A stretch of DNA of 32,000 nt from Faecalibaculum rodentium (GCF_001564455.1 NZ_CP011391.1:2040001-2072000), one strand, 5' to 3'. Positions 10,517 through 20,935 are shown, numbered from the stretch's first letter. Made by a program: numbers and translations. Notes: a model not told the origin generated them from the sequence alone.

Positions 10517-11129
10517 TTATAGCACGGCACTATTATGCTCACTAAGGAACCCATGTCTTCCTATTTTCTTATTATTTTTTAATTCTATCCAATAGTATTT
10601 TTCCACTTCATCAAGTTCATTTTCAATTGTGTAGCATGGACGATTTTCAGCAATCCGCCTTTCTGCCAATTCCTCTGTCCATCCTATTACTTTAGCTGGG
10701 TTCCCTCCAACGATAGCACCTTTCGGGACATCCTTAGTAACCACGCTACCACCAGCTACAATTGCACCTTCTCCAATCACTACACCAGGCATAATTTTCG
10801 AGAAACCGCCAATACGCACATTGTCCTCAATAGTAATTGTATCAAAGTGAGGATAATTTTTTCCTAAGTAACTATATGTTTGATTAAGTTCATGATAGAA
10901 AATATCGTGGGTTACAAACTCCACAGAAATAGCAATTATAACATTATTTCCGATAGATATTAGGTATGGATCGGACGGCCCCCCACAAATGAACGTTCTC
11001 ACCAATATGATGGAAAATGTGCTTTTCTCGAAGATAATCTCCTCTCCACTTAGCAGACTTCTTTTTATAAATAGTCTTGAACAAAATATTTATAATTCGA
11101 TATTCCTTTCTCTTCTTTGCAATATTCAA
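10517..11129 (-). pseudogene. Hexapeptide-repeat (LbH) O-acetyltransferase, out of frame at a G6 tract
   Basis: Two ORFs overlap: 10944..11129 (TTG start, ...YLREKHIFHHIGENVHLWG) and 10517..11005 (PSDPYLISIGNNV...GGNPAKVIGW). Removing one G from 10979..10984 gives a continuous 203-aa protein (612 nt). Confidence 0.75.
10979..10984 (-). repeat. Homopolymeric G6 tract (C6 on the plus strand) at the frameshift point of the acetyltransferase
   Basis: Counted directly: the plus strand reads ggaCGGCCCCCCAcaa. Confidence 0.9.
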
Positions 11130-11244
11130 TGTTCTTCACTCCAACAGCAAATCATTTATTCAGCATCATTTAACAGCAAGGCAACTTTTCTCGTCCTCTA
11201 ACATTCGAAAATATTCAATATAGCATCTTTAATAAAATCATTAG

Positions 11245-12447
11245 TCAAATAGAACCATTAATTTTTCTTTTTATGGTCCCCATTGCTGTCCGCATCAATT
11301 TAACTTTCGATATTTCCTTAGATGCTTCAAATAATTTTTTAATATTATATTGTGGAATCAGTTTGCAACCTACTATTCTCATTCCAACTATTTTTCCGCT
11401 CATTGTTGTTTGCATATTATAATGGTTTGGTTGAATGTATTTCAAATCATTCATTTTTATATAATTTTCTAAATATACATACCCTTTATTACGCGCTTCT
11501 ATTAATAAATCCATTCCAACTTTACTTCTTGCAAAAATTATATTTTTCCCTTTTCCTTCTGTAAATTCCGGCATTTGATTTTGATCCAAATTCCACAAAT
11601 CGCCACAGGATATATCCGCATACATTCCCACGCCATTCACGCAGAACTTGCACATTTTTCTTATATTACGTCCTAATATATGATTCCATGAATCAATATA
11701 GTCCATGTATCTTTCTGACTTATCCTTAAGGGTCACTGTAGCTTTACCAGGCCACCCATTTCCTCTATAGCGAACACTATCAATCTGATCTGCCTGTACT
11801 CCCAAATTTTCTGCCAATTTTAATGTTGCATTTTTACTTGGCGCTCCAGCACAGAAAAATGTCATAGTATACTTAATACATTTTTTCATTTTCCCATCAA
11901 GCTTTGTATAATTGATAAGAGCTTCTATATCACATGGTTTTCCTATCACCACATATTTCTTATCGAAGTCGATAATTTTCAAAATAGTATCATATGTAAT
12001 TCCAGTTATATAGCGAGAAGACGCACATGAAATAATCTGTTCTTTCTTTTCATTGGCATAAAGTCTTAACTCGCAAGGATCATCCGGTGATGGACCAATT
12101 TGAATCACGGCATCACATTTTCCTGTTTCCACAAGGAAACAAGCCATTGCGGTAATTACTCCGCCCGAGGCAGCTTCATATCTTATTTTATCGTCTAGGG
12201 ACCAGCCTTTATAAATTCCATAACTAGGCCCCCATAACTCTTTATCCTGTCGCTTGTTATAATTAATACCATTTACTGGGCATATTTTTTCACACAGTTC
12301 AACTTGATCCTTAGTCATGGACACTGGATAAGAAAATCCATTATAATCCACATATTGAACGTCTTTAGCCGCTTTACACAAGCCACATCCAGAGCAATAT
12401 TCTGTATAATATTTACTTTTCTCTTCTATACTTTTTTTCTTAGTCAT
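11245..12447 (-). CDS. Coenzyme F420 hydrogenase/dehydrogenase beta-subunit-like (FrhB family) FeS flavoprotein
   Basis: It has an N-terminal ferredoxin-type motif CSGCGLCKAA...CEKICPV. AASGGVITAMACFL and CAGAPS segments are typical of FrhB-like proteins found beside pyruvyl transferases. Confidence 0.8.
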   Translation of the reverse strand: MTKKKSIEEKSKYYTEYCSGCGLCKAAKDVQYVDYNGFSYPVSMTKDQVELCEKICPVNGINYNKRQDKELWGPSYGIYKGWSLDDKIRYEAASGGVITAMACFLVETGKCDAVIQIGPSPDDPCELRLYANEKKEQIISCASSRYITGITYDTILKIIDFDKKYVVIGKPCDIEALINYTKLDGKMKKCIKYTMTFFCAGAPSKNATLKLAENLGVQADQIDSVRYRGNGWPGKATVTLKDKSERYMDYIDSWNHILGRNIRKMCKFCVNGVGMYADISCGDLWNLDQNQMPEFTEGKGKNIIFARSKVGMDLLIEARNKGYVYLENYIKMNDLKYIQPNHYNMQTTMSGKIVGMRIVGCKLIPQYNIKKLFEASKEISKVKLMRTAMGTIKRKINGSI

Positions 12448-19142: not shown

Positions 19143-20323
19143 TACTTCGTCTCCATCTGCTGTGCGATATCAGTATCCACGATTTCCTCGCCAGTCTTGT
19201 GCTTCAGCTGCTCCTTAGATGCTTCACTCAGACCGTTATTGATCACACAGTTCATATCGCAGGTGCTGCACTTATCCAGATCCTCCTTGGTGACCTTGCC
19301 ATCACGGTAATCACGGCAGATTTTCAACTCGTACATGCTGTACGGATGCTTGGTAAAGAGAGCCTTGAACTTGTGAACCAGAACCCAGGTAGCGGGCTTC
19401 CAGATGTACTTGTGCATAGCCGGAGAAACAGAACCAATCATCCAGCAGTCACGGTCGCAGCAACGAACCTTTGCACGAACCTTCTCGGCCTCCGGGCTGT
19501 TCCACAGCTCATCCCAAGTCTGGTTATTCAGGTTGCCCATGACTTCTTTATCCTTGGTACCATTGCAAGGCATAACATCACCATACGGGTCGATGAAGAA
19601 GGTATCGAAGCTCATGTCGCAAGGCAGCAGACGCTTCTGGCCGTAGATGTAGTTGATCAGGCCGTGGTTGAAGTAAGCACGGAACCACTTTTTCGGGCTG
19701 TTGCTGCGGAGCAGTTCATTGACCAGGTTCTCGAAGTTCTTTGCAACCATCGGACGGTCATGGATGATGTTCTTTGCCTCAACAAAGTAGAAACTGTTGT
19801 GCAGAGAAGCGGTAGCGAACTCCATACCCATCTCATCGGAGATCTTGTACAGCGGAACCAGGTCAGGAGCGTTCTTGTCCTGAACGGTCATACCGAAGCC
19901 AACGTCCTTCATGCCCATCTCACGCAGTTTCTTCAGCGTGCCATAACCACGCTGGTAGCCGTTCTGTAAACCACGGATCTCGTTGTTGGTCTGCTCCAGA
20001 CCCTCGATAGAGATACGGATACCGATCTGCGGGAACTCTTTGCACAGGTCAACGATACGGTCAGTAAAGAAGCCATTGGTCGAAATAACAATACGGTCAG
20101 ACTTCTTGTACAGCTCACGCACGATATCTTTCAGGTCCGTGCGGATAAACGGCTCACCGCCGGTGATATTTGTAAAGTACATCTTCGGCAGCTTCTTGAT
20201 GGTTTCAATGCTGATCTCCTCTTCCGGCTTGGAAGGTGCTTTATAGCGGTTGCACATGGAGCAACGGGCGTTGCAGCGATAAGTGACGATGACAGTACCA
20301 TTTAACTTCTTTTCTTCAAACAT
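19142..20323 (-). CDS. Radical SAM enzyme with SPASM/twitch-like auxiliary cysteine clusters
   Basis: The motif C17-x3-C21-x2-C24 (YRCNARCSMC) is present. Downstream segments are PCNGTKD...VRCCDRDCW and a C-terminal C-x16-C-x2-C-x3-C cluster. Its start overlaps the upstream gene by 8 nt. Its stop overlaps the next start (TAATG). Confidence 0.85.
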   Translation of the reverse strand: MFEEKKLNGTVIVTYRCNARCSMCNRYKAPSKPEEEISIETIKKLPKMYFTNITGGEPFIRTDLKDIVRELYKKSDRIVISTNGFFTDRIVDLCKEFPQIGIRISIEGLEQTNNEIRGLQNGYQRGYGTLKKLREMGMKDVGFGMTVQDKNAPDLVPLYKISDEMGMEFATASLHNSFYFVEAKNIIHDRPMVAKNFENLVNELLRSNSPKKWFRAYFNHGLINYIYGQKRLLPCDMSFDTFFIDPYGDVMPCNGTKDKEVMGNLNNQTWDELWNSPEAEKVRAKVRCCDRDCWMIGSVSPAMHKYIWKPATWVLVHKFKALFTKHPYSMYELKICRDYRDGKVTKEDLDKCSTCDMNCVINNGLSEASKEQLKHKTGEEIVDTDIAQQMETK

Positions 20324-20935
20324 GATTAACTCTCCTATTGTTTACTTTATCTTTTAAGAATGTTTCGATTTTATTTAAGAACCACTTTGCACATACCGAG
20401 AACACAATCGAGCCGCAAACGACTACAACAGCCGTGAAAAGATATGCCAGCAGACCGTTTCCAAACAGATGTACAAGGTGTAGCTTCTCAAGCACACGAT
20501 AAATTACCATGTGGCACAGGTAAATCTCGAAGCAGATACCACCGAGGAACTTGGCGACTGGATTGACCAGTACCCCCCCCTTGCATCCGAGGGTATAAAT
20601 CAGTGCTGCCACACAGAAGAACAGCACCGTGAGCGTATTGCCGCCTAATGCAAAATAAGCAACTGCGGCAATCAACAAAGTCGCTCCGGCGATAACTTTG
20701 CATTTTGCTGCAAACTCAGCCAACTCTTTCCGATATAGAAAAATCAAGCCTCCAGCGATAAAATATACTGCACAGTACAGAATGTTTGTCCTTGCACTGA
20801 AATTTACGGCTGCTCCATCTGCAATGTGGCTTTCATCAAAGAAATATGTACTGCATACGAAGTTGTAGATTACGGCGCAGATAAATGCCAACCATGCACG
20901 TTTCTTGTTTTCCAGCAGAAAGCAGAAAAAAGGAA
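20316..20935 (-). pseudogene. Acyltransferase family 3, 3' portion (interrupted by IS1595); contains an in-frame G8 tract
   Basis: The segment reads ...PFFCFLLENKKRAWLAFICAVIY...ICFEIYLCHMVIY. It continues the 5' portion at 22056..22493 in frame once the IS and one target-duplication copy are removed. Confidence 0.8.
20573..20580 (-). repeat. Homopolymeric G8 tract (C8 on the plus strand), coding-strand context caaGGGGGGGGtactg
   Basis: Counted directly. It encodes the GG in GCKGGVLV. Confidence 0.9.

Follow-up and report, generated by a model that had tools for sequence, protein, structure and literature searches.

The window analysed here, a stretch of 32,000 nucleotides from Faecalibaculum rodentium ALO17 (Erysipelotrichia; NZ_CP011391.1, 2040001–2072000), is assigned to a Wzx/Wzy-type capsule or exopolysaccharide locus. 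Four acyltransferase genes, all on the minus strand, each contain a run of G residues on the coding strand, and the possibility that these runs act as switches is the subject of this report. LbH1 (10517..11129) has a G6 run (10979..10984), LbH2 (17568..18128) a G8 tract (17950..17957), AT3-1 (18131..19142) a G10 tract (18620..18629) and AT3-2 (20316..22493) a second G8 tract (20573..20580); on the plus strand they read C6, C8, C10 and C8, respectively. A prediction made from the sequence alone (the original prediction) had placed the four tracts at these positions, on this strand and in all four acyltransferase genes, with the G6 and G10 runs leaving their genes off frame by one base and both G8 tracts in frame. 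A run search, Pfam (two Hexapep/LbH and two Acyl_transf_3 proteins) and a frame check agree with it on each of these points.

Acyltransferase genes and their G tracts

LbH2, AT3-1 and AT3-2 belong to a cassette in which the genes are ordered AT3-2, radical SAM, AT3-1, LbH2. LbH2 is predicted to encode a WbbJ/WcaF-like hexapeptide-repeat sugar O-acetyltransferase (Pfam Hexapep 2.7e-17, 62.1 bits with a cut-off of 27); its top NCBIfam match is WbbJ, below cut-off. Its tract is in frame, encoding S-G-G-G-T, and the product is identical to WP_067558961.1 of F. rodentium, the G8 form. LbH2 is the sole intact acyltransferase of this assembly. AT3-1, predicted to be an Acyl_transf_3 membrane O-acyltransferase, is split at its tract into open reading frames of 199 and 146 amino acids, the G10 being +1 out of frame and the in-frame length G9. 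Removal of one G yields a protein of 336 amino acids, matching PF01757 from position 2 to 324 of 326 (8.7e-32, 110.9 bits with a cut-off of 31). A dinucleotide repeat, (TC)3, is located at 18588..18593 on the minus strand of the same gene and is (TC)2 in sister strains. The tracts encode Gly-Gly(-Gly) in turns, between two hydrophobic segments in AT3-1 and ahead of the hexapeptide coil in LbH2. When off frame, AT3-1 would stop 23 codons past the tract, and LbH2 would become a stub of 71 amino acids.

AT3-2, the second Acyl_transf_3 gene, is interrupted by an IS1595-family element (20936..22055, minus strand), and its two halves match Acyl_transf_3 at positions 2–143 and 165–325 (50.9 and 41.6 bits with a cut-off of 31). 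The element has 26-nucleotide inverted repeats, 88% complementary, and is bordered by a perfect 8-bp target-site duplication, AAAAGGAA, at 20928-20935 and 22056-22063. Its transposase gene (20963-21997) contains the Pfam domains PF12760 and PF12762 (zinc ribbon and DDE_Tnp_IS1595). When the element and one copy of the duplication are excised in silico, AT3-2 becomes a single open frame with the G8 in phase. The site is empty in the sister strains L001–L003, with the junction exactly at 20935/22056, and there AT3-2 is intact, with 349 amino acids; by this comparison, the insertion is recent. The in-frame G8 of the second acyltransferase-3 was correctly predicted, while its role as a switch does not hold for this strain, because IS1595 splits the gene and AT3-2 cannot switch. 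The identical IS1595 transposase is found in 145 blocks of the collection, nearly all of them on short contigs, a distribution that suggests an active multicopy element.

LbH1 is a pseudogene of a maltose/galactoside-type hexapeptide acetyltransferase (Pfam Hexapep 8e-10, 38.4 bits), similar to maltose and galactoside acetyltransferases in the Protein Data Bank with E-values from 1e-15 to 1e-13. Its G6 run is the site of a +1 frameshift: removal of one G joins HIGENVHLWG to PSDPYLISIGNNV, and the alignment with the maltose acetyltransferase 2ic7 spans this junction. No NCBIfam equivalog at or above cut-off was obtained for LbH1 or LbH2, and Pfam revealed no further acyltransferases in the window beyond the four described.

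The tracts of LbH2, AT3-1 and AT3-2 are the only G or C runs of at least 8 within the 32 kb. The string GGGGGGGG occurs at 5 overlapping positions in the window, all in these 3 tracts, where 0.74 are expected, and 5 or more were obtained in 0 of 100 dinucleotide shuffles. By itself, the G6 of LbH1 is unremarkable, as the window contains C6 runs at two further places, 1855 and 29999. If a homopolymer of about 7 or more G or C in a reading frame, above chance, is taken as the mark of a candidate tract, the G8, G10 and G8 runs qualify and the G6 does not. The predicted improbability of the tracts thus applies to the three long ones, on the evidence of the shuffles, and not to the G6. Local GC content is 32–36% at 10.5–17 kb and 40–49% at 17–21 kb, and GGG makes up 6.7% of the glycine codons in the operon. 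TAC directly follows each of the three long tracts on its 3' side, a shared context that had also been predicted; the codon phase differs in each.

Tract length, codon use and flanks in related loci

Sister strains are represented by nine Illumina-derived Logan contigs, retrieved by exact-product look-ups and 99.8–100% identical to the window. The G6 of LbH1 is present in all six of the contigs that cover it (L084–L089, from 6 samples and 2 studies), without length variation. Because it is identical in six Illumina-derived sister contigs, the frameshift is considered real but fixed; on this comparison it is a pseudogene lesion and not a switch, contrary to what had been proposed for it. The LbH2 tract is G9 in five sister contigs, out of frame, versus G8 in the window, while the AT3-2 tract is G8 in the sister strains as well. 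Their AT3-1 tract is scrambled, reading AAT TGT GGG GGG TTC, with four substitutions in 15 nucleotides against a background divergence of about 0.1%, and the gene is broken by a (TC)3 to (TC)2 deletion 36 nucleotides downstream of the tract (L001 11690-11730, corresponding to window 18588-18632). Alleles interrupted in a similar manner, by G-to-T or G-to-A changes, are found in L128, L110, L137 and L165. Runs of 6–8 A or T over 21 kb are all of equal length in the window and the sister contigs.

The shared CTG(n)TACAG context might have originated through micro gene conversion from LbH2 to AT3-1; this was rejected, as more than 60 AT3-1 orthologues have the context as their ancestral state and it is the sister allele that stands apart. 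Look-ups in short-read assemblies with the LbH2 product (186 amino acids), the 199-amino-acid AT3-1 fragment, Wzy, WbsX and the pyruvyl transferase gave no identical-strain contig across the tracts. Exact-product look-up detected no alternative tract states in the same samples, and the genome contig scan contained no locus of the same species. The assignment to F. rodentium comes instead from exact matches of window proteins, among them the products of LbH2 and the truncated Bac_transf gene.

The comparison with more distant loci drew on 80 species representatives, obtained with the radical SAM gene as the anchor of a genome scan, and on 80 human-gut contigs from a metagenome scan with AT3-1; orthologues were compared in about 170 loci of gut genomes and metagenomes. 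The original prediction had looked to orthologous loci for length polymorphism, and there the tracts are kept at the same codons, with lengths from G5 to G13. At the AT3-1 site (96 entries, lengths G6–G11), 49 alleles are in frame as ACT-G9-TAC or ACG-G10-TAC, and six are off frame through tract length: the window with G10, L006, L008 and L029 with G8, L046 with G10 and L116 with G9. Other alleles, with G6 or G7, stay in frame and lack one glycine, and others again contain interrupted runs (GGGATGGGG, TGGTGGGGG and GGGAGAGAA); interrupted alleles arise mostly through G-to-T or G-to-A changes within the run. The tract at the AT3-2 site varies between G7 and G13, 18 alleles being out of frame and 17 in frame; at the LbH2 site it varies between G5 and G11, and 25 alleles are out of frame against 16 in frame.

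Tract lengths are unequal in ten pairs of sequences that come from independent samples and share at least 99% identity, usually with no other insertion or deletion between the two. Examples are L119/L125 (G8/G9), L104/L106 (G10/G8), L104/L108 (G10/G6), L013/L104 (G9/G10) and L150/L154 (G7/G9). Most off alleles have intact open reading frames on both sides of the tract (12 of 16 for AT3-2, 17 of 19 for LbH2 and 3 of 4 for AT3-1); extra lesions are present in 5 of 27 AT3-2 alleles. Tracts, including off-frame ones by a rough frame call, are also present in cultured isolates, namely Blautia sp. BIOML-A1, Anthropogastromicrobium aceti, Lacrimispora indolis and Coprococcus catus. Many of the metagenome contigs have 1–10x coverage, and off-frame tracts occur also in contigs of 11–30x (L118 and L172). 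A large protein search returned mainly full-length matches, so no census of on and off alleles was drawn from it.

The nearest syntenic relative, L180, has the same gene order and 93% nucleotide identity. Its AT3-1 has G9 and is intact, with 336 amino acids, and its LbH2 has G9-ACA in frame, a synonymous T-to-G change extending the run. Only a 5' remnant of LbH1 is present and AT3-2 is absent. Immediately 5' of the AT3-1 tract of L134, a (TG)4 expansion is located (about 6520-6545). In the IMG/VR contig L179, an AT3-1-like fragment with a G6 (5294-5299) lies beside XRE/ImmA-like prophage genes, and may represent a prophage junction inside an AT3-1-like gene; a scan of viral contigs for phage-borne, tract-bearing AT3 genes gave only this AT3 fragment at the prophage junction.

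The glycine codons of the AT3-1 tract are GGG in 146 of 163 cases (90%), counted over 61 distinct in-frame alleles with synonymously diverged flanks, while the glycine codon five positions upstream is GGG in 12%. AT3-1 orthologues in which G-I-G, G-R-E, G-M-G, W-W-G or G-D-I replaces the glycine run remain intact, so the protein does not need Gly-Gly-Gly. The homopolymer is evidently maintained by selection at the nucleotide level.

Runs were also counted over 1.39 Mb of related loci, with the operon oriented on the plus strand. G runs number 10,242 for G3, 2,210 for G4, 499 for G5, 85 for G6, 21 for G7, 21 for G8, 17 for G9 and 9 for G10; the G8–G10 counts form a hump rather than a geometric decay. 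C runs end at C7 (three cases), save for one C18 at a contig end, so that 48 G runs of at least 8 on the coding strand compare with no genuine C run of that length. By gene family, the tracts of at least 8 G (49 in this tally) are found in Acyl_transf_3 (18), LbH (10), GT2-type glycosyltransferases (6), GT4 glycosyltransferases (5), Bac_transf (2) and FrhB-like genes (2), with one each in GtrII, DUF6625, GHMP kinase, DUF6020 and two unclassified genes (6 together). In the species set, 26 of 47 tracts are in AT3 and LbH genes, which account for about 5.6% of the bases (binomial p of about 1e-20). The bias towards decoration genes is real but not exclusive. Within the operon, the tracts had been thought confined to acyltransferases, which is true of the window; in the related loci, 45% are in glycosyltransferases, priming transferases and other genes. 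In other species, poly-G is found in or just upstream of Bac_transf and also near the amino-terminus of GT2 (TPTFNR-GGG-LQS); examples are L005 522-531, L050 5559-5566 and L010 5903-5912. Such sites may switch the whole capsule or its backbone in those species.

The long tracts share a flank consensus, (A/T)-T-Y-G(n)-Y-A, derived from 56 quasi-independent sites of at least 8 G (L001–L178) and present across codon phases and gene families; the window sites inspected were 17945-17960, 18615-18632 and 20568-20583. Of the 56 sites, 75% have A at position +2, 50% have TA as the 3' dinucleotide and 38% have TC as the 5' dinucleotide. For runs of G3–G6, TA is outside the six commonest 3' dinucleotides, each of which accounts for at least about 7%. 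The pyrimidine borders could result from extension of the runs through A-to-G transitions, which leaves the A at +2 unexplained. A role of the TA flank as an off-frame stop codon was rejected, since TAC and TAT dominate.

The surrounding locus

The published ALO17 genome is a PacBio RS II C2-chemistry assembly with more than 50x coverage and 54% GC, for which short-read polishing is not described (PMC4752744). The locus is 80–93% identical at the nucleotide level to loci of Blautia, Coprococcus and other Lachnospiraceae, and, judged by this similarity, its low-GC part is clearly foreign to F. rodentium. The original prediction called the locus Clostridia-type; the host belongs to the Erysipelotrichia, even if its cassette is Lachnospiraceae-like.

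Between the two AT3 genes, the radical SAM/SPASM gene (19142..20323, minus strand; assigned by Pfam) is the intact core of the cassette and was the anchor for the comparisons. Its product has 86–99% amino acid identity across the 80 species representatives, which include metagenome-assembled genomes (MAGs) labelled Akkermansia, Prevotellaceae, Collinsella and Fusobacterium. The gene adjoins an AT3 gene in a minority of loci (upstream in 23 of 78, downstream in 9 of 72), and no NCBIfam equivalog was found for the protein at cut-off. It appears to be an unusually conserved, horizontally spread and uncharacterised enzyme of polysaccharide loci.

The Bac_transf priming phosphoglycosyl transferase gene (27008..28252, minus strand) is truncated after residue 380. 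The lesion is a single base pair, the plus strand having GGG at 27114-27116 versus GGGG in the sister strain L001 (C3 versus C4 on the coding strand), and it removes the 77 conserved carboxy-terminal residues; the truncated product is identical to AMK55397.1. The truncation could mean that capsule initiation has truly been lost, or could stem from an error in the PacBio consensus. A Bac_transf protein of 414 amino acids from Logan (P0209) was considered as independent confirmation of the truncation and rejected, being a different allele with a different lesion. A GT4 glycosyltransferase remnant (26425-26808, minus strand) retains 127 amino-terminal residues and contains a T8 run on the coding strand; because it is also present in the sister strain L001, it is regarded as an old deletion.

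At the other end, a strong terminator-like hairpin (10388-10417) closes the operon. A group II intron (8492-10286, minus strand) follows about 100 nucleotides downstream, with a reverse transcriptase/maturase open reading frame at 8492-9841 and the Rfam domains D1–D4 at 9977-10286. Five of the six sister contigs from Logan that extend to the intron side end at 10123/10124, which fits a repeated element. A diversity-generating retroelement was considered as the cause of the clustered changes and rejected, since the reverse transcriptase proved to be the maturase of a group II intron and the changes show no specificity for adenine. Near the start of the window, an IS3-family element (418-1601) is followed by a stretch of 60–64% GC (window 418-4500 in all), containing an amino-terminal UDP-glucose dehydrogenase fragment (2114-2812, minus strand) and a DegT/PseC-like sugar aminotransferase (2754-4028, minus strand). 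Because this 60–64% GC stretch contrasts with the 32–36% GC of the capsule core, the locus is regarded as a mosaic.

A predicted O-acyl switch, its alternatives and known systems

The three long tracts are probably slipped-strand contingency tracts, switching O-acyltransferases in a horizontally acquired cassette. The phase-variable switchboard of the original prediction is retained for these tracts: their positions are conserved, near-identical sequences have tracts of different length, on alleles occur beside off alleles and most of the latter are otherwise intact, the homopolymer is conserved in GGG codons and acyltransferase genes are enriched in tracts. It is abandoned for the G6 of LbH1 and for the AT3-2 split by IS1595. 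The low-GC core of the locus, which contains the cassette, would have been acquired horizontally from Lachnospiraceae-like gut bacteria. Slipped-strand mispairing at replication would add or remove a G and thereby shift the reading frame, so that each O-acyltransferase would be toggled on or off independently and the O-acyl pattern of the polysaccharide altered. In-frame changes of three bases would only add or remove one glycine in a loop, and three independent tracts would allow eight decoration states. We infer that slippage is the process at work, that it would switch the genes reversibly and at high frequency within a clone and that O-acetylation would change with it. As assembled, LbH2 is on (G8), AT3-1 is off (G10), AT3-2 is knocked out by IS1595, LbH1 is a fixed pseudogene and the priming transferase is truncated. 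Provided that these lesions are genuine, ALO17 may have a silent or decaying locus.

Several observations weigh against a switch. About 90% of the AT3-1 orthologues are in frame, so that switching may be rare at this site, or selection may strongly favour the on state. The G9 of LbH2 is steady over five sister samples, at the level of the consensus. The lengths private to the window (G10 in AT3-1, G8 in LbH2 and C3 in Bac_transf) could be consensus errors, coming from PacBio RS II data only. The lesions outside the tracts (IS1595 and the LbH1 and Bac_transf frameshifts), together with the (TC) deletion of the sister strains, fit relaxed selection equally well. These last lesions lead to the reading in which poly-G runs are fragile mutational hot spots, where dispensable decoration genes of a decaying locus are inactivated in one direction. 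The scrambled AT3-1 tract of the sister strains, the truncated priming transferase, the AT3-2 alleles with additional lesions and the loss of AT3-2 and most of LbH1 in L180 would all agree with such decay. It would leave the GGG run, kept at 90% against a codon preference of 6.7% over orthologues of 76–93% identity, without an explanation, and it sits badly with the interleaving of in-frame and out-of-frame lengths among sequences at least 99% identical, with the lack of a second lesion in most off alleles and with the over-representation of G8–G10 relative to G7. We regard one-way decay as unlikely.

Homopolymers can also support slippage of RNA polymerase or the ribosome, and the glycine residues encoded in turns might be required by the proteins themselves; the tracts would then serve protein structure or transcriptional or ribosomal recoding rather than a switch at the DNA level. 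As intact orthologues have other residues in place of the glycine run, as a need for glycine would not impose the rare GGG codon and as recoding would not yield length polymorphism in the DNA, this explanation has next to no probability. Miscalled homopolymers, in the PacBio window and in low-coverage Illumina metagenomes, could in principle hide genes that are all truly in frame, which we judge to be very improbable. The PacBio-only origin of the window assembly, the 1–10x coverage of many metagenome contigs and the fact that two private differences of the window are homopolymers one base shorter (C3 versus C4 and G8 versus G9) would fit such errors, and database G-tract lengths can be unreliable (PMC9187656). 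However, the G6 of LbH1 and the G8 of AT3-2 are the same in independent Illumina contigs, the A and T runs match those of the sister contigs, the out-of-frame G9 of LbH2 was assembled independently in five samples and off-frame tracts occur in isolate genomes and in contigs of 11–30x; nor can errors produce conserved GGG codons or an off fraction of 50%. Artefact is plausible only for the private values of the window (G10, the G8 of LbH2 and the C3 of Bac_transf). That at least one of the window's own G10 and G8 lengths is wrong is a minor, though not negligible, probability. The reading as slipped-strand contingency tracts is preferred.

Phase variation at simple repeats is textbook knowledge for mucosal pathogens. 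In meningococci, capsule O-acetyltransferase genes are reportedly inactivated by homopolymer slippage and by insertion of IS1301 (work of Claus et al. in 2004), which would parallel the combination of tract and IS1595 described here. The wciZ and icaC products, which we take to be both membrane proteins of the acyltransferase-3 type, are encoded by genes with a (TA)n dinucleotide repeat and a tetranucleotide repeat, respectively; neither repeat is a homopolymer. These are Gram-positive polysaccharide O-acyl/O-succinyl transferases of Streptococcus pneumoniae (wciZ, serotypes 15B/15C) and Staphylococcus aureus (icaC), inactivated reversibly by slipped-strand mispairing within the gene (PMC4432689). 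The predicted switches resemble them in the intragenic slippage of a polysaccharide acyltransferase, but wciZ and icaC are single switches in their loci and both organisms are pathogens. NeuO of E. coli K1, encoded by the CUS-3 prophage, is a capsule O-acetyltransferase with a left-handed beta-helix, and an intragenic repeat makes its expression phase-variable (PMC3046976). It has the LbH fold in common with LbH2 and differs by its 5' 7-nucleotide variable-number tandem repeat and its carriage on a prophage; the hosts of NeuO and of the related LbH enzyme OatWY of meningococci are Gram-negative pathogens.

The capsule locus of Campylobacter jejuni is similar in that several of its capsule-modification genes, among them those for MeOPN and O-methyl transferases, contain intragenic poly-G of about 8–11. 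There, the tracts toggle frames independently, giving combinatorial surface variants, and have been linked to phage and serum escape (PMC8355987, PMC3417653, PMC8437040). C. jejuni differs in being an epsilonproteobacterial pathogen in which switching was measured experimentally, whereas here it is deduced from comparisons; the tracts described here are strictly coding-strand G, reside in AT3/LbH O-acyltransferases and belong to a cassette shared horizontally among Bacillota. Bifidobacterium breve, like F. rodentium a Gram-positive gut commensal with intragenic G tracts, has sortase-dependent pilus genes with tracts of G10–12, for which maximum-depth sequencing revealed length heterogeneity in a culture grown from a single colony, shifted in mice (PMC9187656). 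In that case the genes encode pilus subunits of a high-GC actinobacterium, in which G runs are less improbable, and there is no multi-gene cassette across families. In our literature search, no paper came up that reports phase variation by poly-G for the capsule loci of commensal Clostridia or Erysipelotrichia, or describes it in commensal Firmicutes, in line with the original prediction that the phenomenon was undescribed for such loci; the capsule variation that the search gave for gut commensals is promoter inversion in Bacteroides. The mechanism is classical; the novelty lies in the taxon, in the breadth and in the horizontal sharing of the cassette.

A review from 2025 asks, as an open question, whether genomes with many phase-variable loci are truly restricted to pathogens or whether sampling has been biased (PMC11868660). 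On these comparisons, poly-G appears to serve abundant Gram-positive commensals of the gut in varying the O-acylation of their capsules, and in other species glycosyl transfer and capsule priming as well; the genes that carry the switches appear to spread horizontally. A wider proposal, which we offer tentatively, is that commensal gut Bacillota (Lachnospiraceae, Oscillospiraceae and Erysipelotrichaceae) hold a capsule-centred poly-G phasome that might travel in part as an AT3/radical SAM/AT3/LbH cassette, and whose flank signature might point to a sequence requirement dedicated to the generation, stabilisation or slippage of the tract, rather than to chance homopolymers. Cultured organisms in which these ideas can be tested are F. 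rodentium ALO17, Blautia sp. BIOML-A1, A. aceti and C. catus. Variation at the tracts would affect strain tracking and would help in reading "frameshifted pseudogenes" in gut genomes and MAGs, and switching of capsule decoration would bear on how IgA and phages target these commensals.

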